A program made the position numbers and the translations under genes. Below the pieces are notes generated by a model. The model did not search any database. It was given only the letters and a program-made list of their open reading frames with translations, and was not told the origin of the DNA. A stretch of 64,000 nt of DNA from an uncultured Gemmatimonadaceae bacterium (lineage in GTDB: Bacteria > Gemmatimonadota > Gemmatimonadetes > Gemmatimonadales > Gemmatimonadaceae): positions 384,001 to 448,000 of the forward strand of contig CAWHHI010000004.1 of NCBI GenBank assembly GCA_963829055.1. Reading direction: 5' to 3'. Shown piece after piece: positions 327 to 64,000 of this stretch; within the stretch, counting starts at the first letter, position 1; each line of letters opens with the position of its first letter.

Positions 327-2827
327 CTATTCCGCACGCATCGCGATGCGCGGGTCTACTCGCGTAGCGCGCCGGGCCGGGATGATGGTCGCAACGAGCG
401 CGACGAGTGCGAGCAGTGCTACGGTCGCCGCGAATACGCGCGGGTCTCGCGGGCTCACGCCGTACAGCAGACCCCGAAGCGCCTGAGCCGCCGGGAACGC
501 CAGTATCGTTCCGACAACGAGGCCACCCAGCGGGAGCCTCATCCCCTGACCAACAACGAGGCGGCCGACGTCAGCCGGCGTCGCGCCGAGCGCGATGCGA
601 ATTCCGATCTCGCGCGTGCGCTCGCTCACGAGACTCGCGACGACTCCGAACACCCCAGTCGCCGCGAGCAATAGCGCGAGGCCAGCGAAGGACGCGAGCA
701 CGGCACTCGTGAATCGCTGCTTCGCCCAGGCACCGCCGAGCTGCTCCGTGAGCAGCCCGAAATCGTAGAGCGCCAGATCGGGGTCGACGTTCTGCATCGC
801 GTCGCGAATGCCGCGCATGGTGGCGGCGGCGTCGCGCGACGTACGCACCATGACCGTGCGCGTGGCGTACGTGAACTGCAGATACGGCGTGTACACCGCA
901 GGGCGAGCGCGGCGGTCGTCGCCTTCCTGATACGGGACGTCACCGACGACGCCAATGACCTCGAGGCTCGAGTCGGGCGAGTCCCACGCGCTCGCGCTGC
1001 CGCCGCCGAACCAGATCCGTGCGCCGATCGGATTCTCGTTCGGCCAGAAGCGCCGCGCCGCGGTCTCGTTGATGATCGCGACGCCGGGTCGGCCTTCGCG
1101 ATCCGTGCTCGCGAACGCCCGTCCGCGCAGCAGGGGAATGTCGAGCGTGCGGAAATGGTCGGGCCCCACGTAATGGCGCATGATGCCTGGCGCCGCTCCA
1201 GGCGCCGGAACGGGGCGCCCGAGCACGAACAGCGAACTGTTCGCGCACGACGCCACGAGTGGCGCGCATCCATCGACGGTCGCCGCGGTCACGCCCGGCA
1301 CTGTCGCAATGGATGCCAACAAGCGCTCGATGAACGCGGGCGCGGCGGTGGTCGCGTAGCGCACCTCCGGTGGCCGCACCGAGAACGTGATGACGTTGCG
1401 TGGATCGATGCCGAGTGACTCGCCTCGCAAGCGCGCGAGCGTCGCGAGCATGAGACTTCCGCCGGTGAGCAGCACGAGCGCGAGTGCGACCTCGACGGCG
1501 ACGGCGATCCCTCGCAGCGAGGCGAACGAGCCTCGTCCCGCGCGCGTGACCGCTCCGCTCTGTCTGAGCGTCGTCGCGAGCGCGGTCTTCGTGGCGGTGA
1601 GCGCCGGCGCGAGCCCGCACAGAAGCGCGGTGACGATCGTCAGACCCGCCGTGAACGCGAGCAGCGTGACGTCGACATGCGGTCGCACGAACTCGCCGAC
1701 GCTGCCATAGAAATTCGACGGCGCAATGGCTCCCGCGGGCGCAACGATCACGCGCGTCGCCCACCACGCGAGCGCAATGCCGATGGCACCACCTAACGAT
1801 GCGAGGAGCGCTGACTCCGTGAGCAGCTGCCTGACGAGTCGTCGGCGCGTGGCGCCGAGCGCGAGGCGCACGGCCATCTCGCGGCGGCGGGACGCGGCAT
1901 GCGTGATGAGCAGGCTGCTCACGTTCGCGCAGGCGAGGAGGATCACCGACGGCCACCGCGCCAAGCAGCACGACCATTGCCCGTCGGGTGGTGGCGTTCA
2001 CGCGAACTTCGGACAACGACACCGCCGTCGCCCCATACGAATCACCGGGGACCTCGGACTCGCTCGGCTCCGCTCGCTGGATGGCCGCGCCGGCCGCGCC
2101 GATCTCCGCGCGAAGTGATGCGATGGAGGCGGTCGGCCGTAGCCGCGCGACGACGCTGATGAAATCCTGATTGGTCGTGAGATACTCGGGATACGTTAGG
2201 CGCGGCGCCTGCACGGCCGGGTACCAGAGCTCAGCGCTACCGGTGAGGCCGCTGAACCCGTCGGGCATGACGCCGATCACGGTGAGATCGCGTGCCGTTC
2301 ACGCGGATGACCTGCCCGAGGACCGCCGGATCGCTGCCGTACCGCCGCCGCCACAGGTCGTGCCCGATGAGGGCCACGAGCGCGCCGGCGGTCTCGCGGT
2401 CTTCCGCGCTCGTGAAAAGGCGCCCGCGCGCCGGCTGCACGCCCAGCACGGCGAAGTAGTCACCGGACACGACCTCGGCGCGTACGGGCTCGGCGTCCGT
2501 CCGACCGGCGAGGTTGACGCTGGAGAGTCCGTAGCTGCCGATGGCGGCGACGGTGTGGAGCGACTTCTCGAGCATACGAAACCGCTGATAGGACCAGCGG
2601 AGTCGCTCGGTGCCGCGCGTGGGCTCGGTGTGAGTCGTGTACAGCATCGCGAGCTGGTCGGGGTCGCGAAACGGCGGAGGCGTGATGAGGGCGGCCTCAG
2701 CAACCGCGAACGTCGCGGTGCCAGCGCCGATCGCGAGGGCCAGCGTGACTACGACCGAGACGGCGAGCGTGCGGTTCTTTCGGAGCGAGCGGGCAGCAAG
2801 GCGGAGATCGCCAATCAATCCATCCAT
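327..2827 (-). CDS. ADOP/MacB-like duplicated ABC transporter permease (frameshifted)
   Basis: DLRLAARSLRK..TLALAIGA N-terminus; [44 protein letters not shown]-terminus. Split across three ORFs. Confidence 0.9.
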
Positions 2828-2994
2828 CAGTCGGCACGGCCTGAGAGGGCGGGCATCATCTTGGGTGGCTGCACCGTAGGACGCCAGTCAGTCAAAGAGC
2901 GCTTGAACGCGTTTGCCAACGCTCCAATCGCGAAGAAGGAGACGTAGCGGGGCTTCCGGCGGCGGCATGGCCAGTACCAAGTGCGTCAGCGACT

Positions 2995-3092
2995 GCTCAG
3001 CAGCAGGTGTCAGGCATCAGGCCCCGTATCCGCCGGCTTGGGTCGCCGTTACCCGCAGTGCCCTGACGCCTGACAACTCGTACTGACGCGAC
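2995..3092. repeat. Inverted short heptamer repeats (TGTCAGG CATCAGG / CCTGACG CCTGACA)
   Basis: Seen in the intergenic sequence downstream of tag. Confidence 0.5.
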
Positions 3093-3139
3093 TCAGTGCT
3101 GAGTCACTGGCCACGCTGCCGAGACAACACCGATAAGCG

Positions 3140-3719
3140 CTAGGTGCCGGACTTCGCGACTTGGCGGTACCGGAAGCAGTTGGTTGCGTGGTCGTTGACC
3201 ATTCCCGTCGCCTGCATGAAGGCATAGCAGATCGTCGAGCCGACGAAGCGGAAGCCGCGCTTCTTGAGGTCCTTGCTCATGGCGTCCGACTGCGGCGTGG
3301 ACGCCGGGACCTGGCCGAGCGCGTTCCACGTGTTCACGCGCGGCTTGCCGTCCACGAAGCGCCAGACGTACGCGTCGAACGAGCCGTGCTCCTTCTGGAC
3401 GTCGAGGAACGCTTTGGCATTCGAGACCGCCGACTCCACCTTGAGGCGATTCCGGACAATGCCCGGGTCGGCGAGCAGCCTTTCTACCTTGCGCGTCGTG
3501 TAGCGAGCGACGCGAGCGGGATCGAAGTCGTCGAACGCTGCGCGGTAGGTGTCACGCTTCTTGAGGATCGTCTCCCAACTCAGTCCGGCCTGGGCGCCCT
3601 CGAGGATCAGGAACTCGAACAGTCGCTGGTCGTCGTGCAGCGGGACGCCCCACTCGGTGTCGTGGTACGGAATGCTCAGGTCCGTGCGTGGCCCATCGAC
3701 ACCGTGTGACGTTAGGCAT
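3140..3719 (-). CDS. tag: DNA-3-methyladenine glycosylase I (frameshift near 5' end)
   Basis: RC.WA, YHDTEWGVP, LFEFLILEGAQAGLSW, GIVRNRLK, GFRFVGSTICYAFMQATGMVNDH..CF. Confidence 0.95.
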
Positions 3720-3737
3720 GATCGTCAGGCGTGGCCG

Positions 3738-4503
3738 TTAGGCATAGAGGTCGTTCACGTCGGCGGCCGCGAGCTCCGTGTAGAAGCCCGCGAGGCGCTC
3801 CGTCACCGCGTCGAAGTAGCGCGCGCCCTTCTCGGGTGTCGCCGCGGCTGGATTGCCGGTGCCGGTATCGTCGGTGACCTTCGTCCACTGCCGAGGCGCC
3901 CATGCCCAGCCGTCACGCAGGCCGGCCACCCGTGAAGCGTCGCGCGCGTCCCGCGCCCGCGTCGCTGAGCGGAAGCACGAGCTCCGGCATCAGGTGCTGC
4001 ACGAGACTCGTCTCGAGCTCGCCCGCGTGATCGCCCGGCTCGTCGAAGAACGGGCGAGGATCGAGGCAGCTGTACCAGTTGATCGTGCAGATGAACGGTC
4101 GCGCCGTCGGCTGCAGCTCGCGGATCATCTGCCGGAAATCGTTCCCGCCGTGACCGTTGAGGATCACGAGCTTCGCGATGTTCGCGGCAGCGACCACGTT
4201 CGCGACGTCGGCCAGCACCGCCGCCTGCGTGGACGGGTTCAGGTTCATGCACAGGGGAATGTCCAGCTGTCCCGTGTTCACACCGAATGGCACGCATGGC
4301 AGAACGATCGCGCGCGCCCCCTGCTCCCACGCGCGACGCGCGGACTCGGCGGCGACCGCGTCACTCTCGATGACGTCGGTGCCGTACGGGAGATGGTAGT
4401 TGTGGGCTTCCGTGGCGCCCCAGGGGAGGATCGCGACGTCGTAGCGTGTGTCGCGAACGGTCTTCCAGTTCGTCTCAGCGAGGATGTATGGGCGTCCGGC
4501 CAT
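3738..4503 (-). CDS. Creatininase family amidohydrolase (frameshift near 3920)
   Basis: GATEAHNYHLPYGTD, NGHGGN, DHAGELETS, DTGTGNPAAATPEKG. Confidence 0.9.
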
Positions 4504-5050
4504 CGAAGTCGGTTATGAGTCGCGGGTGGCCGTCGACCATATCGTAGAAGCGGATCCGGTCGGGCTGTTTGCTCTTGGCGAGCAAGATGATCTGCCCGGT
4601 GTGCATCGAGAAGTGCTCGACGACGTGATACACCGCCTCGAGCACCGAGACGTCGTTCGCCTGGATCGTGCGTCGCGTGTGCAGATCGGCAGGCGTCAGC
4701 GAGGCGAGCACGCGATCGACGTCGGTGACGGTCTGCTCGAGCCAGTCGATGAGGCTCGTGGCGGGCAGCGGCGCCCGCTGATCGAATTCGCTCTGACGGT
4801 CGCGGATGTCGGCTGCGCCGCCGACGCCGCTCACGATCCACTGCCGCGCGTTACCGGAGAGGTGGAGCATCAGGTTGCCGATGCTGTTCGACGACTCGTT
4901 AGGCCGAGCCCAGATGATATCGTCGTCGAGCACGGAGACCGCGAGGCGGATCTTCGTCAGATACTCGCGCAGGTAGCGCCGCGAGAGCGCGATGAGCATC
5001 TCGGCCGTCGCTCGCTCGCCGGCAACGGGTGTCGCACCTGGTGCCGTCAT
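4475..5050 (-). CDS. DinB/DUF1572 family protein
   Basis: WARPNESSNSIGNLMLHLSGN, RDRQSEF, VEHFSMHTGQII. Confidence 0.85.
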   Translation of the reverse strand: MTAPGATPVAGERATAEMLIALSRRYLREYLTKIRLAVSVLDDDIIWARPNESSNSIGNLMLHLSGNARQWIVSGVGGAADIRDRQSEFDQRAPLPATSLIDWLEQTVTDVDRVLASLTPADLHTRRTIQANDVSVLEAVYHVVEHFSMHTGQIILLAKSKQPDRIRFYDMVDGHPRLITDFDGRTPIHPR

Positions 5051-5607: not shown

Positions 5608-5836
5608 AGGACGACGGGTGAAGAAGGAACAGAGAATCTGTCCTCAGCGCTTCGTGATGTCTATCGGGAACGGCGCTGGTGGCTGGGCGGTCGTGCTGGT
5701 CGCTGGCTGAACGAAGCGTTAGGTGATCCTCACGAAAATGACGTTATTTCTATCGAGCTCAGCCGGCGCGTCGGGCCCAACAGTTGCGGGCGGCAGCGAG
5801 CACGCAAGGGCACCGCTCCCCATCGAGGAGGTACCG

Positions 5837-6364: not shown

Positions 6365-6372
6365 CGGGTGCG

Positions 6373-6699
6373 TTAGGCGGTCACCGTTTCCCGGACGAAG
6401 ATCGCGTGCGCGCCGGCGAAGTCGAGGATCAACATGTCGCCGGCGCCGAGCGCGAAGCGCGTCGACATGGCGTGAGGCGCGCTCGGATTGTCGGTCTCGA
6501 GCAGGTCACCTGTGGTGCGGTAGATCAACGGCACCACCAGCTCACGTCCGTCGACCGAGAGGATGTAGCGCAGGTGGCCGCCCGGCTGGAACTCCATGCG
6601 TACGCCGGGCCCGAAGTCGAGCGACGGGTCGCTCCTCATGAGACGCCAGAGGCCGAACAGCCACGACGGCGTTGGGTCGTTGAACACGGGCTGGGTCAC
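6373..6699 (-). CDS. Hypothetical protein
   Basis: GTG start; LFGLWRLMRSDPSLDFGPGVRMEF, beta-rich. Confidence 0.65.
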   Translation of the reverse strand: MTQPVFNDPTPSWLFGLWRLMRSDPSLDFGPGVRMEFQPGGHLRYILSVDGRELVVPLIYRTTGDLLETDNPSAPHAMSTRFALGAGDMLILDFAGAHAIFVRETVTA

Positions 6700-6884
6700 G
6701 CGAAGTCGAGCCGGGAAGAGCTGAAGAAAATCGAGGTGGCCGGATGCCGCCCGGATCGGGTGCCGCGTCGAATCCAAGATGTTTTCCGGTGATGACGCCG
6801 TCCAGCCACCGATGACGCCGCCGCTGACCCGGGACTGGCAGGCATGTTGCCTCGGCCAAACTGCAGAACGTTCAGGAGTGGCAA

Positions 6885-7483: not shown

Positions 7484-7922
7484 CGGCGGCGTCGAGCACC
7501 TCGCGCTCGTCAGGCGCGAGCGCGCGAACTTCCGCGGTGAGTGCCGCGACCCGCCGCGCTCGGCCACGCAGTAGCAGCGTGCGCCCGTTAGGCGTTGCGC
7601 GAATCCGCGTGAGGCGCCCGTCGCTCGCGTCGGGCTCACGCGTCACGAGACCGTCGGCCTCCAGCGCCGTGACGAGGCGCGTCATGGTCGGCGGGCGGAC
7701 CTGTTCCGCGTTCGCGAGCTCGCCGAGTGTGAGCGGTCCGCCGAAGACGAGCACGGACAGAGCGGACAGACGGGGCGCGCTCAGGCCGCTCGTGGCGTCT
7801 TCGCGACGCAGCCGCCGCAGCAGATGAATCGCCGCGGAGTGCAGGCGATCCGCCGTCCGCTCGGCGTCGTCCTGCGCGCTCTCGCGCTCTGATTTATTCG
7901 GTCTTGCGCGCGGCGACGCCAT
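7446..7922 (-). CDS. MarR family transcriptional regulator
   Basis: LSALSVL..GPLTLGELA..EQVRPPTMTRLVTALEADGLVTR..D.R winged HTH. Confidence 0.92.
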   Translation of the reverse strand: MASPRARPNKSERESAQDDAERTADRLHSAAIHLLRRLRREDATSGLSAPRLSALSVLVFGGPLTLGELANAEQVRPPTMTRLVTALEADGLVTREPDASDGRLTRIRATPNGRTLLLRGRARRVAALTAEVRALAPDEREVLDAAVTVLEGVIDRLR

Positions 7923-10192: not shown

Positions 10193-10397
10193 CGCCGAAG
10201 CTGGCGATGTCGTGTGGATGACGTGCGGCGTCCGTCGGCGGCAACGGGAGTACCGCCGACGAACTATGAGCGCCAATGTAGGATCCTGTACTTCCAAACG
10301 TCCAGTGGGGAGGAGCGGCGAGCGGACGCTCGAGCTTGCCAGTCGGTCAGTCGTGCGGCCTAACGATCCTACGTTTCCGCGTCGTCGGCGCGCGACG

Positions 10398-11137: not shown

Positions 11138-12135
11138 CACGTCGCCCCGATCACCTCGAGAAAATCCGCGAACATGCCATACGCCGTGGTGGTGAGATCC
11201 GGAGCCGCCGATGTCACCGTCAGACCACCCGGAAATACCTCCGCTTCGTAACGCGTGACCAGCGTCGAGCCCGAGACCGCGAGTGGGCTGCCGAGCGCCA
11301 CCTGCTCCGGCGCGACGCGCGCCAGGACTGCGGTGCCCTCCGCGCTCACGCGACCCACGAGCCGGAACGGCTGGCCTGCGCGGTGAGCGGCACGCACCGC
11401 GTCCGGATCCAGCGATCGCAGACCAACGCGGTCCACGTCAGGCGGGTGAAGCGCGTGCTCGAGAATCACGTTCGAGATCGCGCAGAGCTTCACGGCCGAG
11501 TCCCAGCCGTCCACGTCGTACGATGGATCCGCCTCCGCGATGCCTAACGCCTGCGCCTCGCGGATGCCGTCGTCGATCGAGGCGCCGCGCTCCACCGCTT
11601 CCAGCACCACGGTCGCCGTCGACGTGAATATGCCGCTCACCGCGCGGATCCCCGCCAGCGGCAGGCACCGGCGCACCAGCGAGAACACCGGAGTGCCGTC
11701 CATCACCGCCGCCTCGAATCGATACTGCCGCGCGTGCAGCTCGGCGAGCGCGCTGAGCCGACGGTAGCCATGCACCACCGGACCCTTGTTCGCGGATACG
11801 GCGTGCACGCCGGCGCGAAGCACCTCGCTCAGATAGTCGAGCGCCGGTTGGCCCGTGTGTGGGTCGAGCGCGATCGTCTCGAACACGACGTCGGGGCGAG
11901 CCGTCAGGAGCCAGTCACCGATGTCGTAGCACGTAGTGCCCGCCGGCCCCGGCCCGCCTGGCGTCAGGCCGTCATCACTGTCTGCTCGCCAGCCTAACGT
12001 CCGCGTCGCGACGCCGGTGATCCGGCACGTGACCCCGTATCGTACCGCCAGCTCGGTTCTTCTGGATTCGAGCAGCCGAACCAGCGCTTTCGCGACGTTG
12101 CCGTACCCGAGAAACGCGACGGCGTAGCTGCGCAC
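11137..12135 (-). CDS. hom: Homoserine dehydrogenase
   Basis: GYGNV Rossmann motif, SANKGP, FEAAVMDGTP, AQALGIAEADPSYDVDGWDSAVK. Confidence 0.9.
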   Translation of the reverse strand: MRSYAVAFLGYGNVAKALVRLLESRRTELAVRYGVTCRITGVATRTLGWRADSDDGLTPGGPGPAGTTCYDIGDWLLTARPDVVFETIALDPHTGQPALDYLSEVLRAGVHAVSANKGPVVHGYRRLSALAELHARQYRFEAAVMDGTPVFSLVRRCLPLAGIRAVSGIFTSTATVVLEAVERGASIDDGIREAQALGIAEADPSYDVDGWDSAVKLCAISNVILEHALHPPDVDRVGLRSLDPDAVRAAHRAGQPFRLVGRVSAEGTAVLARVAPEQVALGSPLAVSGSTLVTRYEAEVFPGGLTVTSAAPDLTTTAYGMFADFLEVIGAT

Positions 12136-12149: not shown

Positions 12150-12554
12150 TCAGCGTCCCCGCACGATGCGTGACGGCATCGTGCGGACGTCGCGTGCCTG
12201 ATACAGGCACACCGCGACGACGATCTGCGTGAGCGCGACCAGAACGCCAACGCCGAGCGAAACGCCGGCTGGCCGGCCTAACGCGGAGGCCTCCGGGCCG
12301 ACGAGCCGGGCGACGGCCACGATCGAATTCAGGAGCACGTAACCGCAGAGGAGTGCCGCGATGTACCACGTCTGCCGGTTCGGTCGCCCGAGCCGGAACG
12401 CGATGGCCGCCGCCAGCACCGCGGTGCCGATCCAGTGGACGAAGAGCACGGCGTTCGGGCCGCGCGGCGGCAGCCGGAGACCGAATGCGAGGACGACCGC
12501 AATCACCGCGTACACGGCCTCCGCATAACGGGCCGTGCGTAGCGCCGCGGGCAC
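12150..12554 (-). CDS. Small membrane protein (about 4 TM segments)
   Basis: Hydrophobic segments; GTG start 2 nt after the extended osmC stop. Confidence 0.65.
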   Translation of the reverse strand: MPAALRTARYAEAVYAVIAVVLAFGLRLPPRGPNAVLFVHWIGTAVLAAAIAFRLGRPNRQTWYIAALLCGYVLLNSIVAVARLVGPEASALGRPAGVSLGVGVLVALTQIVVAVCLYQARDVRTMPSRIVRGR

Positions 12555-13085: not shown

Positions 13086-13637
13086 CTAATCGAACTCGAA
13101 CTTCGGCGCGCCCTGCTCGGATGTGACACGGCCGGCCATGATCTGGGCGATGGCGAAGTTCTCCGACCGCACAGGCGACTGCGCGAGCCGCCGCAACATC
13201 ACGATCTGGCCCACGTGCGTGAACGCGTCGGCGACAGGACCCTGCAGCAGCTGTTCCGCGGACCCGCCTAACGGCCGATCGCCGGCGAGATAGTCGTCGA
13301 GGCGCCCGAGCGCAGCAAAGAAACGCGCGGACTCCTCGTCCCACGAGCCCGGCGTGGACACATGCCAGCGCTGCTGGCCTTCAGCGAGCGAGAGTGCCCA
13401 GTCGAGCAGATCGCCGAGATGCGCGAGGATCTGCAGGGGAGTGCGCGTCTTCTCGCTGGCGTGGAAGTCCGCGACCGCGGGCGATGCATTGCGAATGGCC
13501 TTCCCGCCGCGATAGGCGAGCGTCGCGAGCGCATGACGCAGCATGGCGCGCTTTCCCCGCGCGTGGGGCTCGTCGTCAGCCGGGCTGCTCACGGTGTGCA
13601 CCTCATCATATGGGTCAGCGGCTCGTGACTCGCCCAT
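13086..13637 (-). CDS. DinB-like protein (start uncertain)
   Basis: LRHALATLAYRGGK, RTPLQILAHLGDL, QGPVADAFTHVGQI.MLRR. Confidence 0.8.
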   Translation of the reverse strand: MGESRAADPYDEVHTVSSPADDEPHARGKRAMLRHALATLAYRGGKAIRNASPAVADFHASEKTRTPLQILAHLGDLLDWALSLAEGQQRWHVSTPGSWDEESARFFAALGRLDDYLAGDRPLGGSAEQLLQGPVADAFTHVGQIVMLRRLAQSPVRSENFAIAQIMAGRVTSEQGAPKFEFD

Positions 13638-15612: not shown

Positions 15613-15775
15613 GCGATTCCACCTCGTAGCTGCCCGGCCAGTCGACGAAGCGTCGTCGATCCTCTTGGCCGGGACTATGGGGGGTGGACCGGTCGATGTC
15701 CAGAAGAAAGATGTGCGGTCTTGCGCGGGTGTTGCGACATTTGCCGATTTCGAGCGCGGCGGGTACCGCGCGACG

Positions 15776-16032
15776 TTAGGCGATGGCGAGCGCGGCCAGA
15801 AATCCCGCGGGCAAATACGTCTGTTTGCCGGCTGACCCGCGCGGCCTATCCAGGGTCGCGACCTTGACTTCTCCGCGGCGCGCAACGGCGATCTCGTCGA
15901 GGATGGGCTCGATCAACCGACACGGCGGACACCACGTGGCCGGGAAGTCGACGAGCGTCAGTCCTTTCGACTGCTCGATTTCCCTGCGCGACTGTGCGTC
16001 AGTAACGGCGATGGCGGTGGCCAGGATGACAC
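15776..16032 (-). pseudogene. Truncated thioredoxin
   Basis: LVDFPATWCPPCRLIEPILDEIA..VKVATLD, then unrelated sequence; the cis-Pro C-terminal half was not found. Confidence 0.65.
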
Positions 16033-48144: not shown

Positions 48145-51100
48145 CTAGAACTTCCACTCGCGGGCGAGGAATGTTCCGAATATCCCGGTGCTCTTTGGCG
48201 TCACGCGCTCGAGCGTTGGGGCCTGCGGGATGTACCGGGGCGTGAAGCTCGCGCGACCGAGAAGCCCTTACCGAGACGACGCTGCACGCGAATTCCCGGC
48301 ACGGCGCGATCGTTCGGGTCGCTCGCGAACGCGCTCAGTCGCGCCTGCACCGCGACGAACGTGTTCGGATCGGTGTACTTCCCGACTTCGATTTCGCGTG
48401 CCCTTGAAGAAACCCGAGATTTCTCCGCTCTGCGCCAGTTCGGTGTACAGGTCGGCCGGCGTCACGTTCACGTACGCGGCGCCGAGCGAGCGCGCCGCCT
48501 GACTCTCGAACTCGTTCACGAAGACGCCGAGCGCGACCGCCGCCAGCTGTTGCGTCGCGAGCTGCGCTCCGGTGCCGGCGATCCCGGATCCGCCACCACC
48601 GCCCGAGAGCGACGATCCCTCGAACTGCAGCAATGAGCTCGACGTCCGGCCGAACGCGAGGTAGCTGAGCAGGTCCGACTGTGAGAGCGGCGGCTGCGCG
48701 TCGCTGTCGAGCGCGATCCGCGGACGACTCAGCGTGCCGCCAATCTGCACGCGGATGTTGATCGCCTGGCTCGCGGCCAGTCGCACTTCGTATTCGCCCG
48801 TGATCTGCAGGTTCGGATCGAGCTCGGCGTCCACCGACGAACATCGACCGACCCTCGCCGAATCTGGAATCGCTTGCTGAGGAACTCGTACTCGCCACGA
48901 TCCGTCTGAACCTCGCCGTCCAGCACGACAGCCTGACGACGCTGGTCGACGCGAATCGCCAGTGCGCGATCCGGTGGCGTGAAGATCTCGACGTTGGCGT
49001 CGCGCCGTCCGCACCCAGGTGTCGCGCGCCACATCGAGCGTTCACGTCCATCCGCAGGTTCGCCATCAGCGCGATTGGCGCGCCCACGCCGCATCTCCTC
49101 GTCACCCGCGCTTGGACGTGTCGACGAACTGATACAACGCCGGATCGCGCGTGCTGATGACTTCCTTGTGGTCCGATTCCGGGATCGACGATCACGCCGT
49201 TTTGCACGCCGACGCGGCCCGACACCACCGTGCGGTCGAACGGTCCCTTCACCTCGAGGCCAACGTCCGCGCGCACGGTGCCCTGTGTCGTTGTCCAGCA
49301 CGCGCGCGTTCTCCGCCACCAGGTGCAGGTCGAACGACGGCTCGGCTGATCTTCTTGATGCCGATACCGCCGCGCGCGAAGACGCGGCCACCCGCGCGCC
49401 CCGCGATCGAGTCGATGACGATCGTATCGGCGAACATACGGAGCGACGCGTTCACGTTCGTGAGGCGCATCCCGGTCGACGCGAGACGCACGCTCCCGTT
49501 CTGCAGCGCCAGCGCGCCAACCGTCGTCGGGTGACGCGTCGTCCCGCGCACGCGCACGACGCCGAACGCGCGCCCACCGACATCCGACACGGCATCGGTG
49601 AATCGTGACACGAGGTCGAGCGGCAGCCCCTCCGACCGCGCAGTCGATCGAGATCGGCGCGTCGGGCAGCATCGGCCCCGGCGATCCCGATCCGAGGTTC
49701 ATCGGGATCGTGCCGTCCGCGACGGCGACGCGTCGTCCGCTGTCCGCGAGCCTCGAGATGCGTCGTCAGCGTCGGCGACGCGTACGTCGCCGTCGCGCGG
49801 AGGTCGGGGACCACCGTGCCGGCGTACATGGCGTTCGCCACGCCTAACGCCGCCCGGATCCTCGGCGCCGCGCGTCGTGCCCTCGATCCGCGCCGTCGTC
49901 GTGACGAGGCCGCGGAACGTCGAGATCCGTCTGCGCCAGCGCCGCGAGATCGGCGACCTGGAAATTCTCTATCACGATGTCGAGTGCGCCGACACCCTCT
50001 GGCGGAATGTTGCCGTCGACGAACACGCGACCGTTCTTCCCGTTCTTGAGCTCCAGCTCGGTCGACGAACACGCCGCCGGTGCCCCAGCGGATCGCCGAC
50101 GGATGCGACGCCACCCACCGCGTGCTGTCGAACCGCAGCGCGAGGTCGCGAAGGTGCACCTCGTTATGATCCTTGTGCAGCGCGAAGTCGCCGCCCACGC
50201 TGTACTCCTCGCCCGTCTGCTGGAACATCGCGACCACGACGTCGCCCGCCGACGCGTGATACGACGAGCGGATCTCCACGCTGTCCATCGCGAAACCCGC
50301 CGCGCGCGCTGAGTCGAGCGACGCGCCGACGGCGATCGCCGACTGCGGGCGTGAGTCGCGCCGAGCCACGCGTACTCGAGACGCCCCCGACGCAGCGTGT
50401 TGCCGCGGAAGACGACGTTCTCGGCCGCCGCTCGCCCGCGGAGGTCGAAGCCCTTGATGCCACCCCTGATCGACGCCAGCTGCGCGCAACTGTCCCCGCG
50501 GTGGAGTCGACGACGAAGCGGCGCCTGGTGGAGCAGGGATGGGTCCGAGGCGAGGCGCGGCAGCGCCAGTCGCGAGACGCTCGATCTCGGTCTCGCGCGC
50601 GACCGTCGCGGAGTCGGCCCTGCGCCTGTGCGACGATGCGTGCGTAGTCGCGCGGACGCGGCGCGACGACGCCGGTGTCCGCCGCCGGGAAGAACCGGTT
50701 GAGCGCGCGCGAGCGAATCGACGACGCGGCTCGATACCGCAGCTCGCCGGTGTGCCCGGCCGCGAGTCCGAACGTGCCGCCGAGCGTGAGCGACCGTGTG
50801 CGGTCCACTCACGCTCGTCGAGTCGAGACGCGCACATGCCGTCCGCGATCGCCACGCGAACGTACGCCGAGTCGATCGCGACGGTGTCGATCGTGGAGGT
50901 CGCGAGGTTCGCGCCGAACGCGCCGCGCATGGTGGCCGGATCGAAGCCACGACCACGCGCGAACGCGGTTGCGGTGAGCGACGTGGCCGGCGCGCTTCGC
51001 CACGACGCTGCTTCGCGTTGAACACGCGCATCTGCGCGGCGAGATCGTAGCCCTTGTCCTTGCTCGCGAGATCGAGCGTGCCGCGCGTGTCGAGGCCGTC

Positions 51101-52797
51101 CGCCGTCGGCGAGCGCGAGCCGCGCATCCATCGCGAGGTTGCCCAGGTCTCCCGTTAGGCGCACCGGGCCGGCCGCCGCGCCCTGCGAGGCCTGCGGCAG
51201 GCGCGAACTTGCCGACCTCCGCCAGCGACAGCGGCAGCAACCGGGCGTCGACGTCGAACCACGGCCGGCTCCCGAGACCGCATCGTCGCGTTCCCCGCGA
51301 TTCTGGATCGCAGCGCGCCGTCAGTGTGCGTGAGATCGGTGCGCACGACGAGCTGCGCGTTCGTCTCGCCGTTGAGGCGCGCCGAGCCGCGAATCGAGCC
51401 GCCAATCGGAAGCGTCGGCATGAACGTCGTCGCCATCCCGACCTGCACCGGGTCGAGCGTGACGTCGAGATCGCGGAACCGAACGCCGCGAGCCCGTCGT
51501 GCCCGACTGCCCCTATCGCGATCACGCGACTGCGGCCATAGCGGGCGTCGTCGAAGGCGACGTCGCCGTCCACGTGCATGAGGCCCGGTGATCCATCGAG
51601 CTTCGCCGACGCCGCTCAACGTCCCGTGCCGCGGGATCTTCACGTCAGGCGACCAGCTGCTCGATCAGGTGCGTGTCGACCGACGAGAACCGCAGGTCCG
51701 TGTCGTGGAACCACAGGCTGTCGCCGACCATGGAGATGGCGAAGTCACCGCCGGTCCGCGCGGAGTCGATGCGGAAGTCCACCTTCTGCGCGATGTACGT
51801 CGACGTATCGCCTTTCCACTGAAGGCGGAAATCGAGATTGCCCTGACCGCGCGCCGGCAGCTGCGGCATGATGAACCGGACGTCCGCGAGGGACATCGGC
51901 TGTGCGCGCAGCAGGAGGTCGAAATCGTTTGTGTCGAACACGTAGCGCCCGTCGCCCGCGGCCTTCGATCCCGGCAGCCACAGGTGCGTGTTCTTGAACC
52001 AGATCGAGTCGCTGTGAACTCCAGCGTGCCGATGAAGTTGCTGATGACGGCCGCCGGCGGATGGAACGGCAGCACCGTCGCGGAAAGCTTCGCGATCTCG
52101 AGCCGGCGGACATGCGTGTCCGGGTGTTGGAGCCGAAGGTAGGGAAGCTCACCGTTGAAATCGCGGAACTCGATGATCTTCTGGAAGCCGTCGCCGCGAC
52201 GCTCGACGACCACGCGCTCCTTCCCGGCGACCGCGGAGCGCGATGGCCGAGTCGCGCGCCGCGCCAGTCAGCTCACTCTTGGGCTTCCACGGGGAGCGGA
52301 TCACCATGTGCCCGCCGAGCACGGTGATGTTGCGCAGTACGATCCAGTCGCCGAAACCAGCCTTGGTCGTGTCGCTTCTGCTGCTCCGGCGTATTGCTCT
52401 TGAAGATCGCCTTGTAGTTCCAGAGCGCGCTGTCGCCCGGCGGCCGGTCCAGTACCACGAGCGGGTGAACCAGTCGGATGTCGGTCAGCTCGAGCCGCTT
52501 TCGCAGCAGCGCACGCAGTCCGTAGTTCAGGCTTACCGAGTCCGCGACCAGGAACGGTGCGTTCGCGGAGTCACGGATCGACACGTTCGCGATCGTGAAT
52601 CCCTCGAGGAGGTTCCCGCTCACGCGTCCGAGCCGCACGACTCCATGCTTGGCCGCGCCCTGCACGGCCGATTGCGCGAACCGGCGGACCCGCTCGCGCC
52701 CGTAGTCCGTGTTCGTGAACACGAGCAACCCCACCAGTACGACGGCCACCAGCAGCACCACGAACGCTGCGGCGTAGGCCAGAATGCGACGACCCAC
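48145..52797 (-). CDS. tamB: Translocation and assembly module TamB-like protein (heavily frameshifted)
   Basis: N-terminal TM then NTDYGRE, GRVSGNLL; C-terminal DUF490-like LDPNL..I.GTLSRPRI.L.SD..PLSQSDLLSYL.FG; ends WKF*. Confidence 0.85.
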
Positions 52798-52798
52798 G

Positions 52799-55067
52799 TC
52801 AGTACGCCTCGCCGATGGACAGATGTAACGTTAGGCGCCGCATCACGCCGGTGATGCCGGACGCGCCTCCCGTCGGGTTGTACTTCCACTGGTCGGTCAG
52901 CTGCACGATCTGCCCCTGTCCGTTCGGGCCCGGGGATCTCCGTGATCACCGAGAGGTCCTCGGCCAGCGCGGGGTTGAGTCCGACGTCGACGCGGATCGG
53001 CCCAACCGCCGAGCGGTAGCGAATGCCGATGCCCGGCGTGATCGTGCCTGCGCCCTTCGTCGCGGACTGCAGCGAGCCCTGGCCGAGCAGCGCGCCGTCG
53101 ACGAACGTCGCGCCGTAGAGGGCGCGCCAGATCGGGAAGCGATACTCGACACTGCCCTCGATCAACGCGCGACCGCCTAACGGGCGAGGCGTGAAGTCTC
53201 TGTCGGCCAGCGCGTTGCCTGACGAGTCGACGCGGGACAGATCGCACGTCGCCACCGCCTCCCCGCTGAGCTCGGGGCAGATCACCGCGAGCTTGCTCGC
53301 CGGCAGCGTGAGAACGCGCGGGCCGAGTTGATTCTCGCCAACGCCGCGGACCGACCGCGCTCCGCCTGCGTACAGGCGCGTCCGCGGGTGCAGGATGTCA
53401 CCGCTCAGGTCCTCGCCAGCGCCCGTCGCGAGTCGCGTGCTTTCCAGCGCCCTCACGAACCCCACGCGCGAGTGGAACGCCAGAACCGATCGAGCGCCGA
53501 TCGGCCGATACACCGCGCCCTCCGCGTAGACGCTGTTGTAGCGAAAGCTCGATCCCGTGTACGCCGACGCATGATCGAGGCGCGCCTCAGCTGTGTAGCC
53601 GCGCCTGGGCTCCAGTGGATCGTTCTGGCGGTTCACGTTTGCTATGAGCGAGACTGGCGCGAGCCGTTGCCTCTCCCGGAGCGCCGCGATCGTCTGCGGA
53701 TCGCACACGCCGTAGTTGACGCAGTAGTACACGTCGCCGGCGATGACGCCGGTGAGCTCGAATCGGTACGTCAGGCTCACGGGCACGCGATCCATGATGT
53801 CGCGCGTGAACGAGACGTTCGCGCCCTCACCACGTTCGACGAACACCGACTGGTGCCATACGTCTGTAGGCAAACACGCCGAAGCCGGCCGAATTTTTCG
53901 GCGAAAGGAACCACGGCTGCGTGAAGTCGGCGCTCGCGTTATAGGTCGGGTCGAGAAACGCGGACGCATCGCCGACGACGTCTTCGGTGATGTCCTGGAA
54001 GCCGATCAGCCCGCCGATCTGCGAGCCGTTCAGACTCTCGGCGAACAGGTTGCCTAACGTCGCGACCGCATCGAGCCGCCGCGCACCGCCGAAGAAGTTG
54101 TTGTGCGTGAACCGGCCGTCGACCTGGATGAAATCGAATGTGTTGAAGCCGCCACTCACGCGAGCGAGACGCGGCGCCGCTTCCGTCACGCTGACTTCGA
54201 CGTTCCTGATCGCTGTCCCTGGCCGCGCGGCGCCGTCGATGGCGGCAGCGCTGGAACAGTCCCGACTCGTACAGACGACGCTGCGTGTGTGCTCAGCTCC
54301 ACGCGGCGGAACAGGTCGCCAGTGTGGAAGCTGAGCGAATTGCGAATCGTCCGCTCGGAGACCGACTTGTTGCCGGTCACGGTGATAGTGCCGACGTGCG
54401 TTATCCATCGCGGCGTGACGCGGATGGTGGCCTCGGCTGTTCGCGCGGCGGTGTCGATCGCGGTAGCCGTGTCGACCCGCGCATCCGCATACCCTTTGTC
54501 CTGCAGGACCAAACGGATGCGCGCGACGGAGGAGTCGAGCTCGATGAGGTTGAACGGCTTGCCCGAATCGACTCGAGACCACGCGTTCCACCTGCGCGGT
54601 CGTGAGCACCGAATCCGTCTGATTCACATGAACGGCGCGGACGAGCGTCGGCGCTCCCTTCAGTGATCTTGAACGTAACGGCGACCTGATCGTTGCCCTT
54701 GCTCGACGACGCTGGTGTCCACCGCGGCCTGCCGATACCCGCGCATCCAGTAGAACACGCGGATGCGCAGCACATCGCGGCGCAGCTCGGTGCGATCGAG
54801 ATATCGCTTCTCCCAGATCCGATCCGAGTGCGTGAGCGGGCAGAATACGGTCAGGAGAAAGCTCTTACATCGCGACGCTGTCGTCGCGATGCTCTGAGTC
54901 AGCTCATCTCGGTCGACAGATCGAACGCCGCTCAAAGCCAGGGACCGGACTTCCGGTCGCTCCATCTGATCGCTGTTGGCGCTCTTCGTCTGCGCCCCGC
55001 TCGTGCGACCCGCTCCCAGCAGCGCCACGATCGCCCCGAACACGGTAGCAAATCGGCAGGCACGCAT
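52799..55067 (-). CDS. Omp85 (BamA/TamA) family outer membrane protein (frameshifted)
   Basis: POTRA-like LR.DV.RI..FY..RGY and GNK motifs; YAGGARSVRG; GPIRVDVG; C-terminal SIGEAY; adjacent to tamB. Confidence 0.88.
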
Positions 55068-59894: not shown

Positions 59895-62073
59895 TGCCCT
59901 TGTCCATTCTGCCGTTTTTCCGGGACCGCTGGCGCGTGCTTCGGCATCGCATGCGACGCGATCCCGCAGTTCCTGCACGTCGCTGGCTTCGCTCGCACTG
60001 GCCGTGGCTCACTGCGCTTCTGCTCGCCATCGTCGGCGTGGGCGCAGTGGACGTCTGGCTAGGCACCTGCGGCTTCAACGGCTGCCCCACGACTCGGCGA
60101 GATCCGCGCGATTCCGACCGCCCGAGGGCGGAAAGATCCTCGACCGTCAGGGTCGCCTCATGGGCCGGCTCACGGTCATTCGCCGCGTGAATGTGCCGCT
60201 CGAGAGCGTCCCGCGAGTACGTCCGGGATGCGTTCCTCGCCACCGAGGATCGCCGCTTCTACGACCACAACGGTCTGGATTGGCGCGGTTTCATTCGCGC
60301 CGGGCTCGCAACGTCACGCGCGCTCGGCGTGCGTGAGGGCTTCAGCACCATCACGATGCAGGTCGCGCGGAATACGTTCATCGCCGAACATTTCGTCGGC
60401 ATCGCGCACGATGCGGCGGAAGCTCATGGAGCTCCGCCTGTCGCGTCTCATCGAGAAGAGCCTGACGAAGGACCAGATCCTCGCGCTTTACCTCAACGTC
60501 ATCTACCTCGGCAACGGTGTGTATGGCGTCGAGGCGGCGAGTCGCGACCTGTTCGGAAAGAGCGTGAAGGACGTCACGATCGCCGAAGGCGCGATGCTCG
60601 CAGCGCTGCCCAAGGGGCCGTCGGCGTACACGCCGCGCAACAACCGGAAGCGGGCGCTCGCACGTCGCGATCTCGTGCTCGGGCTCATGAGGCGCGAGGG
60701 CTACCTCGACGACATCGGCCTCGTCGCCGCGCGCGCGGAGCCCCTGCGTGTCGCGGCCAAGGAATGGCGCCCGCCACAGCCGGACGATTCGTACGCGCTC
60801 GATGCGGTCCGCAGCGTGGTCGACTCCGTCGAGGCGATGCTCAAAGAGCCGGAGGCGACGACGAGCGACTACGTCGTGTACACGACGCTGGATCTCGGTG
60901 CGCAGCGCGCCGCGGATCGTGCCGTCCGACGCCGCGCGGCCGCGATCCAGCAGGAGGCGCGCTACTGGGCAGGCCGGAACGCCGGTACGATCGAAGGCGC
61001 GATGATCGCGATCGATCCGCGCAACGGCGACATCCGCGCGCTCGTCGGCGGCAGACAGTACGAACGCGGCAGCTTCGATCGCGCGCTCTCCGCGCATCGC
61101 CAGCCTGGGTCGGCGTTCAAGCCATTCGTCTACGCGGCGGCGCTCGCGGCCGGCTTCACGCCGGCGTCGCTCGTGGATGATGAGCCGGTCGAAGTCGAGC
61201 AGGATGGTCGCATCTGGACGCCGGCGAACTACGGCGACGAGTACCTCGGTCGTGTGACCATGCGACGCGCGCTCATGAAATCATCGAATGCCGCGACGGT
61301 TCGTGTGAGTCGAGCGGTCGGCGAGCAGCGCGTGGTGCAGACCGCGCACCGCAATGGCATCACGAGCCCGCTCGTCGCCGGTGCCGGCGATCGCGCTCGG
61401 CGCGCTGGAGGTGACGCCGATCGAGCTCGTGACGGCGTACGCCCCGTTCGCGAACGGCGGATTGCGCGTGCGACCGCGGCTCGTTAGGCGGATCGAGCGG
61501 GCGGACGGCAGCGTGCTCTGGGCGCAGGACAATGCGACGCCCGTGGCGGTGATGGACCCGCGGGACGCGTATCCAGCTGACGTCGATGCTGCGGTCGGTG
61601 GTGGACCGCGGCACTGGTACGGCGATACGCGCCGGCGGCGTCACGCAACCGGTGGCCGGGAAGACGGGGACGACGAACAACGGCGCGGACGTGTGGTTCG
61701 TCGGGTACACGAAGTCGACTCGTTGCCGGCTTCTGGTTCGGCTACGACGCCCCGCGCAGCATCGCCGGCGACGCGAGCGGTGGTCGCCTCGCGGCGCCGG
61801 CGTGGGCGGAGTTCTACCAGCAGGGCTGGAACGATCGCTCGAACGACACGGAGTGGACGCCGCCGCCCGGCATGGTTGCCCGCGTGATCGATGCCGAGAC
61901 GGGCATGCTGGCCGGTGACTGGTGCCCGCTGACGCAGCGCGAGTGGTTCAAGCCCGGCACCGAGCCGACCGAGGTGTGCGACGGAGCATTACGAGCTGCC
62001 GGAAGCCGAGCCGTTCGTCAACAGTGTCGGAGCGAAACTCGGCAAGGCGCTCAAGAAGATCTTCAAGTTTTAA
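59895..62073 (+). CDS. Class A penicillin-binding protein (PBP1A family, frameshifted)
   Basis: EDRRFYDH.G, STITMQVARN, RKL.E, YLN.IY.G, RQPGSAFKP, SSN, KTGT. Confidence 0.93.
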
Positions 62074-62079
62074 CTACGG

Positions 62080-62187
62080 GCAGCTGGTTGCTGGGTGTGG
62101 ATGCTTGGTGCTGGGTGATGCTGGGTGCCAGCTGGTAGCTCCACTCAGCGTCACCCAGCCACCAGCACGACCACCCAGCAACAAGCC
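62080..62187. repeat. Inverted heptamer array (GCTGGGT)n / (ACCCAGC)n
   Basis: Between convergent PBP1A and DUF1501 genes. Confidence 0.75.
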
Positions 62188-62196
62188 TGCGGTTTT

Positions 62197-63468
62197 CTAG
62201 ATAAGTCCGACGTCCGTCTTCGCGACGTAGCCCGGGAACACGGTGTCGAGCTTGGCTGCCCCGAGATGCTTGCGAGGCAATCTCGCTGAACACCGCGCGG
62301 AAATCCGTCGTCAGGGCGAGGTCGCGACCCTCGTAGAGCTGCTCCCGAGCGAGCCCCGGCCATTTGCCGTGGACCTTGCCGCCCTTGATCGAACCACCGA
62401 TCGCGAACATGGCGCCGGCGTGGCCGTGGTCCGTTCCGCCCGTTGCCGTTCTCGCGCGCCATGCGGCCGAACTCGCTCATCGTGAGGATCACGACGTTCT
62501 CCATCCGATCGCCGAGGTCGGTCACGAGCGCGGCGATCGATTGCGCGAAGTCCGTCGAGACGGTCGCAAGCTGCCCCGTCGCACCGCCCTGGTTCACGTG
62601 CGTGTCCCAGCCACCGACGTCGGCGAACGCGATCTCCATGCCGACGTTCGCCTTGATCAGCTGCGCGATCTCGCGAAGCCGCTGGCCGAACTGCGAGCGC
62701 GGATAGTTCGCACCGTTCTCCGGCTGATAGCGCTGTGGATTCGCGGCACGGAGCATCTTCACCGCGTCGAACATCTCGGAGCCCGACGCGTGCACGACGT
62801 CGCTCGCTCCCGGTTCGATAGAGCGCCTCGATCTGCTCGGCGGACGCGCCGCCTGCGCGAACGGTGAATGCCTCGAGGCTCGTCATGGCGACCGCCGGTG
62901 CCGCGCCCTCGAGGATGCGCGGCGTCTGATCCGTCATCGCGACGGCCTGGAACGGCGAGTGCCTAACGCCGCCGGTGTCGCGCACTCCTCGCACGTGCCC
63001 TTCGTCGCGAGATAGCGGTTGAGCCATCCGTCCGGCGTGGACTTCACGTCCGGCGTGCCGGACTCCATGTAGTCCTGGGCGTCGAAGTGCGAGCGCGTCG
63101 TGCTCGGGCTGCCCACGGCATGAATGGGCGCGAGGAGGCCGCGGTCCCAGAGCGGCTTGAGCGGCTGCAGCGACGGGATGCAGCCCGAAGAAGCCATCGA
63201 GGTCGATCGCTGCCTGCGCGTCTCCCAGGCGAGCGCTCGGACGCGGAATCGCGATGCGCGGCCGAAGTGAGTAATACGACGCCTCCCCGTGCGGCACGAC
63301 GACGTTCAGCGCGTCGGCGGCGCCGCGCTGAAACAGACAGATGAGCGTCCGCCCCTTCGCCGCGCCTGGCAGCTCCATGCCGAACGCCGTGCGGCGCAGG
63401 AAGCGCGGGCTCAGTCCCATCGTCACGAGCGCGAGCGCGCCGGATTTCACGAATGCTCGTCGTTGCAT
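62197..63468 (-). CDS. DUF1501 family protein with Tat-like signal (frameshifted)
   Basis: MQRRAFVK, FQRGAADALN, RSHFDAQ, GGWDTH..Q, SEFGR..ENG, TDFR. Confidence 0.9.
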
Positions 63469-63515
63469 GATGCGGCCTACACGTATGAGAAGGATCGGGC
63501 GCGCGGCGCGCCGCG

Positions 63516-64000
63516 CTATCGTCGCTGGAATTCCGGCGAGCCTAACGCGAGCCCGACGACCTGCGCGAGTCCCGTGAGCTCGGGAATGTTTCCGAAGCCC
63601 TGCGCCGCCACGCTGGCGTCGTCGCGCCGGCGGTTCGCCGGCCGCCATGGACGTTGTCGGGGTTCGATCGTCGTGTCGGCGCCTCGCGCTCATGCCGTCG
63701 ACGCCGAGGAATCGGCCGCCGCCTTGCGCGACCATGGGGTGCACGCCGGTCGTGAGGATCTCGCGCGTCTCGCGGCGACACGTGCCCGCCGAGGAGCGAC
63801 GCGATCACGCCGTCGACCTGCTCGGCGCGTGACGCGCGCGCGCAGTCGCGCCGACTCCGGCCACCGGTCGAGCGATGCGCCCGGAATCGCGGTTCGCCGC
63901 CGCCGCCATCCCGAAGTTGATGCGATTCAGGATCGCGCCCGTGTTCATCCACGGTTCCGACGTCTCGGGCCACCCGTTAGGCGCCTGGTGGCCGAAGATC
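63516..64000 (-). CDS. DUF1800 family protein, 3' part
   Basis: PNGWPD..W.NTGAILNRINF; ends SPEFQRR*; immediately upstream of DUF1501. Confidence 0.85.

Follow-up and report, generated by a model that had tools for sequence, protein, structure and literature searches.

Words that recur throughout a bacterial chromosome as a genome-wide signature are known in few groups, namely the Neisseriaceae, the Pasteurellaceae and the cyanobacteria, and each of these cases has been informative on how cells deal with self and foreign DNA. Here we describe such a word, the asymmetric 8-mer GCCTAACG, in a 64,000-nucleotide stretch of DNA (in the following the window) from an uncultured bacterium of the Gemmatimonadaceae. 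The window corresponds to C4:384001-448000 (C4 being contig CAWHHI010000004.1) of the 7,784,024-bp, 20-contig assembly GCA_963829055.1, which has 66.7% G+C and is 85.9% complete.

The cyanobacterial word HIP1 (GCGATCGC) resembles GCCTAACG in several respects. Both are exact, over-represented 8-mers, with an enrichment of 15-300-fold given for HIP1 in PMC5861425 and of 38-83-fold found here. Both occur in about one copy per gene, within as well as between open reading frames (ORFs), are conserved above expectation and are specific for a lineage, with secondary exceptions. The function of HIP1 was long unknown; PMC13756078 now connects it with natural transformation and the type IV pilus machinery. 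HIP1, however, is palindromic and has two cognate methylases, whereas GCCTAACG is asymmetric and is tracked by none of four methylase families; for the periodicity of HIP1 at 10-90 kb no counterpart was found here, PilQ does not separate word-rich from word-poor genomes, and GCCTAACG, unlike HIP1, equals an integron recombination core.

With the DNA uptake sequence (DUS) of the Neisseriaceae and the uptake signal sequence (USS) of the Pasteurellaceae the word shares that it is non-palindromic, occurs about once per kb and equally on both strands, and has no replication skew. Many copies lie in genes and are read in several frames, the encoded peptides are inflated and foreign genes lack the word, as is described for uptake sequences in PMC2817400 and PMC1939737. 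A DNA import machinery (ComEC, PilQ, pilMNOPQ) is present here as well, although equally in genomes poor in the word. The likeness lies in the sequence; preferential uptake is a feature of DUS and USS. The gemmatimonads belong to a different phylum, and no homologue of ComP was found in eight word-rich genomes.

Two further kinds of site have to be compared. Integron attC sites contain a core site GTTRRRY and an inverse core site RYYYAAC (as defined in PMC3053210), with which the word is identical in sequence; attC sites, however, consist of paired boxes around an imperfect palindrome of 57-141 bp and are arranged in arrays beside intI, whereas the roughly 5000 dispersed copies of GCCTAACG are single, have either orientation and lie mostly within ordinary genes. 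Chi and the FtsK-orienting polar sequences (KOPS) are, like GCCTAACG, short, asymmetric and over-represented words that mark the own chromosome, but they are skewed with replication and GCCTAACG is not.

Abundance, form and spacing of the word

In the window, CCTAACG was found 56 times against an expectation of 2.76; the maximum in 100 dinucleotide-preserving shuffles was seven, and none of them reached 56. The inner hexamer CCTAAC occurs 61 times (expected 5.56), with 32 copies on the plus and 29 on the minus strand. These recounts agree with the numbers of an earlier note on this DNA, which had estimated about 56 and about 61 copies and the same split between the strands by eye. At 46 of the 56 sites the heptamer is extended to the full GCCTAACG. 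Neither a shared context nor conserved flanks were found among the 56 sites.

In the whole genome GCCTAACG is present 5004 times and is by far the top 8-mer under both an order-1 Markov model (131 copies expected) and an order-3 model (257 expected). Masking of the perfect copies lowers the order-3 expectation to 60, corresponding to an 83-fold excess, and the overall range is 38-83-fold. A ranking by the maximal-order Markov model was dropped in favour of lower-order and masked models, since it fails to single out the word, the sub-words of which are enriched as well. The density amounts to about one copy of GCCTAACG per 1.2-1.5 kb, and CCTAACG occurs once per 0.9-1.6 kb on every contig. The hexamer CCTAAC is strict, and tolerance is confined to the two outer bases and a few variants: ACCTAACG and CGTTAGGT, the latter with C replaced by T at the last base, are each enriched 20-fold, GCCTAACA 17-fold, CCCTAACG 14-fold and GCATAACG 9-fold, while GTCTAACG is a depleted one-mismatch variant. 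No information beyond codon periodicity was detected in the flanks of the genomic copies.

An artefact of base calling or polishing, a possibility that had been raised for the window, is not supported. The word is hyper-abundant in all six congeneric genomes and in numerous further assemblies, and short-read contigs from four runs of four studies cover the motif-bearing positions 40001-50000, mostly with 90-99% identity; this comparison is based on contigs with 40 of 591 differences listed and so shows the presence of the word, not the state of single sites. The assembly seems to carry single-base indel errors: at 41651 a base is missing at full depth in the contigs of three of the four runs, and many genes are split into adjacent frames or partial Pfam matches (e.g., 42369-44754, 22180-24982, 48268-51579). 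A separate family of intergenic hairpin repeats of the form ...AGAGGGCCCTCT...GATTCCTCGACTCGC...GCTCGGAATGACA is found genome-wide, including positions 6310-6370 and 47683-48350 of the window. Its member sequence TCGGAATGA occurs 767 times and the repeat stretches are very deep in all four metagenome runs. As a partner of the word this family was rejected, as it has no fixed distance to the 8-mer.

The two strands carry nearly equal numbers of GCCTAACG (2457 and 2547), and neighbouring copies have the same orientation in 3293 and different orientations in 3078 cases. No coupling to GC skew was found, including in 50-kb bins on either side of the GC-skew switch on C16, and neither a replication nor a transcription skew of the word was seen. 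The orientations are interleaved in five other word-rich genomes as well; apparent one-strand runs in the genus g51 proved to be an artefact of listing order, the fetched DNA having mixed orientation. The contrast to the strand-skewed Chi and KOPS, which the earlier note had drawn, therefore stands.

Copies of the word keep a distance from one another. At distances below 50 bp the pair correlation g(d) is 0.25; it amounts to 0.46-0.55 between 100 and 200 bp and has risen to 1 by about 300 bp. The depletion of close pairs is equal in all four orientation classes, with pairs below 100 bp at 0.25-0.32 of expectation. Six other word-rich genomes from three genera gave pooled values of 0.33, 0.62, 0.69 and 1.0 at 0-100, 100-200, 200-300 and 300-600 bp. 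On a larger scale the copies per 10-kb bin are near-Poisson on all contigs (variance/mean 1.01), and 14 bins are empty where 1.25 would be expected. A periodicity of 3-200 kb was not detected by fast Fourier transform of 1-kb counts on the three largest contigs, C16, C20 and C4 (permutation p = 0.17, 0.76 and 0.88), a method simpler than the one used in PMC5861425.

Reading frames, turnover and distribution among relatives

Because the gene calls are crude and the assembly seems to carry frameshifts, the frame statistics are based on a local six-frame score, which was determined for the 5000 of the 5004 sites that are 150 nt or more away from a contig end; a first gene finder based on the G+C content of third codon positions had reached only 55% of the genome and was replaced. 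The four frames named in the earlier note are the four in which the word can be read: xCG-TTA-GGC accounts for 1148 copies, xxG-CCT-AAC-G for 759, xGC-CTA-ACG for 498 and xxC-GTT-AGG-C for 363. At 965 copies neither side looks coding, and most of the remaining ones are situated at frame ends. The same score at 5000 random positions gave 461-505 per frame and 862 non-coding, i.e., a similar split between coding and non-coding. Altogether 55% of the copies lie within continuous reading frames of ordinary genes; the density is 0.56/kb in called genes and 0.72/kb outside, and it is flat along genes.

The enrichment persists under a codon-aware null. When synonymous codons were shuffled within each of 4048 predicted genes that are 600 nt or longer, 81 + 42 copies resulted against 1311 + 1526 observed, a 23-fold excess, and this shuffle is conservative because the rare codons supplied by the word itself are kept. 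The word form takes up 23% of the [SPTA]-L-G contexts, 21% of [CSRG]-L-T, 47% of P-N-[VADEG] and 10% of V-R-[LPHQR]. The dipeptide Pro-Asn is inflated (observed/expected 1.40); a similar inflation of encoded peptides is described for uptake sequences in PMC2817400. Of the stop codons, 210 of 804 TAA and 166 of 1633 TAG are supplied by the word, which amounts to 376 of 6408 crudely called genes. The effect on annotation is a practical one: about 6% of the stop codons and nearly half (46.5%) of all TTA codons come from the word, and the Pro-Asn excess is visible. Enrichment, frame usage and codon null together bear out the view, originally derived from the window, that the word is a genome-wide, frame-independent signal at the level of DNA.

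The turnover of the copies was assessed by aligning the window to five congeners with 74-77% DNA identity, in which 22 window sites gave 84 aligned cells. In 31 of the 84 cells (37%) the word is identical, compared with 11-16% for all 8-mers of these alignments, so that it is 2.6-fold better kept than random 8-mers; 63% of the cells are not shared among congeners. Indels occur in only five of the 84 cells. Conversely, 26 cells carry the word in relatives and not in the window. The commonest alternative state is CGCTCGGC, with the Leu codon CTC, which indicates that the favoured frame arises by the synonymous path CTC, CTA, TTA; the intermediate CGCTAGGC is itself enriched 2.7-fold. Copies of the word arise by substitution, are kept above chance and still turn over fast.

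One long stretch of the assembly is free of the word. The largest gap, C6:5440-55038, comprises 49.6 kb with 70% G+C and zero copies. Housekeeping genes (FtsK, DAHP synthase, chorismate synthase, TrpB, peptidase M17, amidase) are encoded here for a second time, with 47-56% identity to the copies on C16 and C12, and the stretch is either a large foreign insert or a chimera of assembly or binning; in both cases it represents an internal negative control. A D5_N/primase-like gene is located near its start.

The nearest named relatives by RecA are metagenome-assembled genomes of the Gemmatimonadales and Gemmatimonadaceae (81-93% identity), in whose RecA neighbourhoods few word sites could be compared. 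The distribution was determined in 201 genomes of the family, at least 80% complete and belonging to 68 genera, with at least 0.1 copies/kb taken as word-rich. The density is bimodal, with modes near 0.003 and 0.3/kb and a maximum of 1.34/kb. Word-rich are 62 of the 201 genomes and 24 of the 68 genera; the tally includes the unpublished genomes G013, G048 and G094, all of them word-poor. One of the word-rich genomes, G053, is 100% complete in four contigs and therefore probably stems from an isolate. The state is mostly constant within a genus. An exception is G115 with 0.013/kb, compared with 0.87-0.97/kb in four other genomes of genus g52, namely G062, G152, G183 and G209; its pilQ region is 72% identical to those of the other g52 genomes, which share 78.5% among themselves. 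Outside the family, a density of at least 0.1/kb was found in three of 162 genomes of a phylum sample, all from genus g102, and also in G030, while families f4-f12, with 63 genomes in all, do not rise above background (this tally includes the unpublished G255, G282 and G351, and G013 among its family genomes). In 680 kb of word-poor relatives the word was found seven times, the mean of 60 TAA-containing words of the same composition being 6.5; it is thus at chance level there and is not avoided. No other hyper-abundant word, which would have pointed to a dialect, was detected in samples of 60-100 kb from six word-poor relatives (top z at most 12).

The integron R box, candidate readers and rival explanations

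The heptamer GTTAGGC agrees with the integron core site GTTRRRY, and its complement GCCTAAC with the inverse core site RYYYAAC; by our own arithmetic, a random 7-mer fits GTTRRRY on either strand with a chance of about 1/512. The identity extends to all eight bases: the 8-mer is the R'' and R' box of the attC sites of this lineage, including those of the genome itself. The earlier note had not recognised the word as described. This holds insofar as our searches gave no comparable account in print, neither of the word as a genome-wide signal nor of a link between uptake sequences and integrons; it does not hold for the sequence as such, which matches the known core and inverse core sites.

The few copies in word-poor relatives form clusters on one strand, with a spacing of about 550 bp; they are situated at the 3' end of a conserved repeat of about 60 nt, between short ORFs, and these clusters are integron cassette arrays. 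Two long chromosomal arrays were analysed, L001 (G021:C95:1-20000), with about 24 cassettes in 20 kb and about 60% G+C, and L002 (G019:C3:1-9000). When the arrays were searched by the conserved inner part of the repeat, R' was CGTTAGGC in 21 of 24 attC sites of L001 and eight of 12 of L002, the variants being mostly GTTAGAC. L001 had also been considered as tandem repeats or as one giant gene; neither was found. Strand-asymmetric counts in the phylum (e.g., 62 vs 6 in G304 and 20 vs 71 in G249) suggest that cassette arrays are common in the order.

The genome has an intI of its own at C20:208041-208958(-), with 265.7 bits just above the NCBIfam cut-off of 265, to which a few cassettes adjoin. 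About nine attC-like pairs of the form GCCTAACG...CGTTAGG[C/T] are located between 119 and 205 kb of C20 and one at 890 kb. Pairs in attC orientation at 30-160 bp number only 58 among 6391 sites, and about ten of these are attC-like, all on C20. The dispersed copies have no attC context, i.e., no partner box, no palindrome and no conservation of the flanks. A truncated intI fragment at C4:2862-3170 is a pseudogene and was rejected as a special reader of the word.

The explanation which we tentatively favour, though with somewhat less than even confidence, is that GCCTAACG serves this lineage as a self word that is read in the DNA itself and maintained by drive through DNA exchange between cells. 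Point substitutions would have introduced the word into the chromosome, and its density of about one copy per 1.2-1.5 kb would be upheld by a force that favours word-bearing alleles, a molecular drive with or without selection, and not by coding, transcription or replication. As its most likely mechanism we see a bias in DNA transfer among the cells of the lineage, in which word-bearing fragments are taken up, or spared and recombined, more often than others. New copies would thereby spread, as for DUS and USS and as is now proposed for HIP1. The reader is expected to recognise the 8 bp that form the R box of the integron attC sites of the order, from which it would follow that gene cassettes carry the tag too. 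The rarest Leu codon occupies a quarter of the suitable Leu-Gly sites, which makes a transmission bias likelier than selection at each site. A tag that is needed only once per fragment would also entail the short-range exclusion.

Several observations weigh against a self tag of this kind. To our knowledge, neither competence nor natural transformation has been shown for this phylum, and a published account of uptake sequences in gemmatimonads was not found. ComP_DUS (PF16732) is found in none of eight word-rich genomes, and its weak matches in ten of 31 relatives all fall into word-poor or intermediate genomes. ComEA (TIGR00426) was not found in this 85.9%-complete genome at E<=1e-5, and its matches elsewhere are weak. 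ComEC is present in 31 of 31 relatives, PilQ in 196 of 201 family genomes, and this genome possesses a full pilMNOPQ and pilin cluster; since the uptake machinery occurs equally in word-poor genomes, it leaves the on/off pattern unexplained. A comparison of the type IV pilus clusters from 13 word-rich and seven word-poor genomes showed them to be syntenic, without any gene restricted to the word-rich ones (two loci being truncated). Among the families picked by hand (IntI, ComP, ComEC, PilQ, ComEA and four methylase families) none tracks the trait. Close inverted pairs, which are enriched in DUS and resemble terminators there, are depleted here, and the sampled relatives are either on or off, whereas DUS and USS have dialects. 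The favoured frame uses the rarest Leu codon, while PMC2817400 links uptake sequences to preferred codons. The exclusion of about 300 bp is shorter than typical uptake fragments, and the exact match to the R box is left unexplained by uptake alone. Homologues of a PilX-like minor pilin are present in all 62 word-rich genomes and in 76 of the 139 word-poor ones (24 of 24 vs 33 of 44 genera), a pattern that echoes the pilus-HIP1 correlation given in PMC13756078; the protein is a lead only, and weak evidence because the query came from a word-rich genome and the relatives are not independent.

An unlikely alternative, yet the most probable of the rivals, is that IntI or a relative reads the dispersed words as isolated R boxes, which could be places where cassettes land or are exchanged throughout the genome, could provide raw material for new cassettes and attC sites, or could act as decoys. 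It would account for the identity of eight out of eight bases to both R-box halves in the genome's own integron region, for the predominance of CGTTAGGC as R' in the arrays of word-poor relatives and, given the chance of about 1/512, for the fit to the consensus. The 20-fold enrichment of CGTTAGGT agrees with the consensus Y at the last base, the frequent position of the word on stop codons (376 of 6408 genes) resembles that of inverse core sites in cassettes, and the exclusion of close pairs in all orientations would fit the hazard of deletions and inversions made by a recombinase. IntI, however, does not track the trait: it exceeds the cut-off in 18 of 31 relatives irrespective of word density, reaches 400-457 bits in many word-poor genomes, was not found above the cut-off in the word-rich G002, G004 and G010 and is fragmented in G014. 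The dispersed copies also lack partner box, palindrome and flank conservation, they were made by substitution and not by insertion, and the 55% that lie in the frames of ordinary genes are placed where an insertion would be harmful. attC sites tolerate GTTAGAC, yet GTTAGAC is depleted genome-wide (0.40 of expectation). Cassette insertion at attG sites requires only GWT according to bioRxiv 10.1101/2022.09.11.507474, a requirement too short to explain an 8-mer, and attG sites were rejected as its origin.

Rather improbable is a binding site of an abundant nucleoid-associated or chromosome-organising protein, the copies of which would be kept by weak selection. The 2.6-fold retention above baseline and the near-Poisson counts per 10 kb on all contigs are compatible with it, the soft, orientation-free exclusion of about 300 bp in four genera fits steric or looping limits, and a role of this kind was argued for HIP1 in 2018 (PMC5861425). 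Weak selection is, however, unlikely to raise a word 40-80-fold against codon bias while distorting the proteome; in addition, 63% of the sites are unshared among congeners, word-poor relatives in the same family and even the same genus (G115 in g52) manage without the word, and a 3-200 kb periodicity was not detected.

We regard it as very unlikely that an orphan methyltransferase marks the word and that repair similar to very short patch (VSP) repair, or methyl-dependent transformation, enriches it. HIP1 is a precedent, with two methylases and a methylation-dependent effect on transformation (as treated in PMC13756078 and PMC4390886), and the four Pfam families searched led to a single methyltransferase in this genome, an adenine methylase of the D12 class at C8:134573-135647, which has a DPPY motif, is split over two frames here and shows 79-84% identity across all six congeners. 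This enzyme also occurs in the word-poor G007, G009, G013, G015, G017 and G018 and was not found in the word-rich G010 and G014, the latter being the densest word-rich relative. PF01555 (N6_N4 methylase) was found in none of the seven genomes of the genus, and PF02384 (N6_Mtase) and PF00145 (C5 methylase) were not found in this genome. A strong VSP-like depletion of one-mismatch neighbours was not seen either, the lowest ratios being 0.38-0.40 on counts of 24-27. The methyltransferase or repair option of the earlier note thus received no support.

A signal that acts with polarity in recombination or translocation, as Chi and KOPS do, which might be suggested by a short, non-palindromic, over-represented word without copies in foreign DNA, is close to refuted by the missing strand skew (2457/2547, none in the 50-kb bins of C16, interleaved orientations in five genomes), and known Chi sites are enriched far less than this word.

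The favoured self tag and the integron could also be connected. It is conceivable, although we consider it improbable, that the word is an exchange tag borrowed from or shared with the integron system, the reader selecting DNA with an attC R box; such a reader could be a receptor associated with the pilus or the periplasm, or a factor acting after uptake that derives from or cooperates with IntI.

Sites in the window and meaning for the family

Ten of the 56 sites deviate from the full 8-mer in an outer base. The variant ACCTAACG, with A as 5' base, is found at 1792..1798(+), 5717..5723(-), 26871..26877(-), 30369..30375(-), 36723..36729(+), 37260..37266(+), 43125..43131(-) and 45733..45739(+), the last of which gives the TAA stop of ORF 44751..45737(+). 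TCCTAACG occurs at 34491..34497(+) and CCCTAACG at 34629..34635(+). All sites mentioned in the following are full 8-mers.

Stop codons provided by the word, which had been reported for several genes, were confirmed for 16463..17227(+) (TAA; site 17223..17229(+), present in three of four congeners), the NmrA-like ORF 33767..34666(-) (TAG; 33766..33772(+)), the above-mentioned 44751..45737(+) and the AstE/AspA-family ORF 45740..46741(+) (TAA; 46737..46743(+)) and, on the basis of our own crude gene calls, for 3738..3929(-) (TAA; 3736..3742(-)) and 6373..6777(-) (6371..6377(-)). Further ORFs ending in the word are 22180..23064(-) (TAA; 22178..22184(-)), the HAD-hydrolase ORF 30898..31695(-) (30896..30902(-)) and 49844..51127(-) (TAG; 49843..49849(+), five of five congeners); the site 15774..15780(-) is the stop of the called ORF 15776..16051(-). 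At 3710-3743 two direct copies 26 bp apart, 3710..3716(-) and the stop site 3736..3742(-), are situated between convergent ORFs, and CAT follows either copy. In each congener only one of the two is present, which implies a 26-bp duplication or insertion in the window with the word at its borders.

Other sites could be assigned to genes. The site 11543..11549(+) lies in the region of a homoserine dehydrogenase ORF (none of five congeners), 18486..18492(-) in the ORF of an AraC-type regulator, where congeners have CGCTCGGC or CGCTTGGC, and 36436..36442(-) within the subtilase ORF 35489..36976(-). The gamma-glutamyltranspeptidase ORF 43630..44754(+) contains 44684..44690(-) in the frame xCG-TTA-GGC, shared by three of three congeners, and the Omp85-family ORF 52620..53969(-) contains two sites of opposite orientation, 52829..52835(-) and 53176..53182(+). 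The longest word-free gap of the window extends from 54053..54059(+) to 61482..61488(-), which is situated at the 3' end of the penicillin-binding-protein ORF 60228..61487(+).

Congeners could also be compared at sites other than these. The word is common to two of five at 2194..2200(-), identical in four of five at 4897..4903(-) and present in three of five at 12277..12283(+), one of one at 30683..30689(+) and one of three at 42489..42495(+). At 31973..31979(-) two of three congeners share it and the third has CGTTAGGT; at 41478..41484(-) two are identical, one has CGTTAGGT and one CGCTCGGC; at 40891..40897(+) the congeners have GCCCAACG, GCCGAAAG or GCCGAAGG. It was found in none of five congeners at 11993..11999(+) and 51153..51159(-), none of four at 7586..7592(-) and none of three at 13267..13273(+), 32185..32191(+), 39833..39839(+) and 42304..42310(+). 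The remaining sites are 10359..10365, 21047..21053, 24833..24839, 25376..25382, 37546..37552, 38057..38063, 62962..62968 and 63541..63547 on the plus strand and 16070..16076, 19233..19239, 21558..21564, 27268..27274 and 63975..63981 on the minus strand. Two stretches of the window, 38531-38836 and 39943-40227, have dozens of matches with 66-80% identity in every congener and are probably a domain of a large paralogous family (MacB/FtsX-type permeases are encoded nearby) or a dispersed repeat.

The Gemmatimonadaceae are a widespread and little-studied family of soil bacteria, and the phenomenon is as strong in them as in any known case. Should the word be an exchange tag, it would be the first self tag for uptake or recombination outside the Proteobacteria and Cyanobacteria. 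If this tag is shared with the integron system, cells would prefer conspecific DNA as well as cassettes from any integron of the order, having the tag stamped about 5000 times into their own genes, and a first mechanistic bridge between transformation specificity and the traffic of integron cassettes would be given. Even if the identity with the R box is coincidental, the integrase of these genomes is confronted with thousands of perfect R boxes; if it is functional, two major routes of gene flow are linked. As the trait is nearly on/off over 68 genera, with word-poor controls and the exceptional G115 at hand, the reader should be findable by phylogenetic profiling and the force that maintains the word should be measurable.

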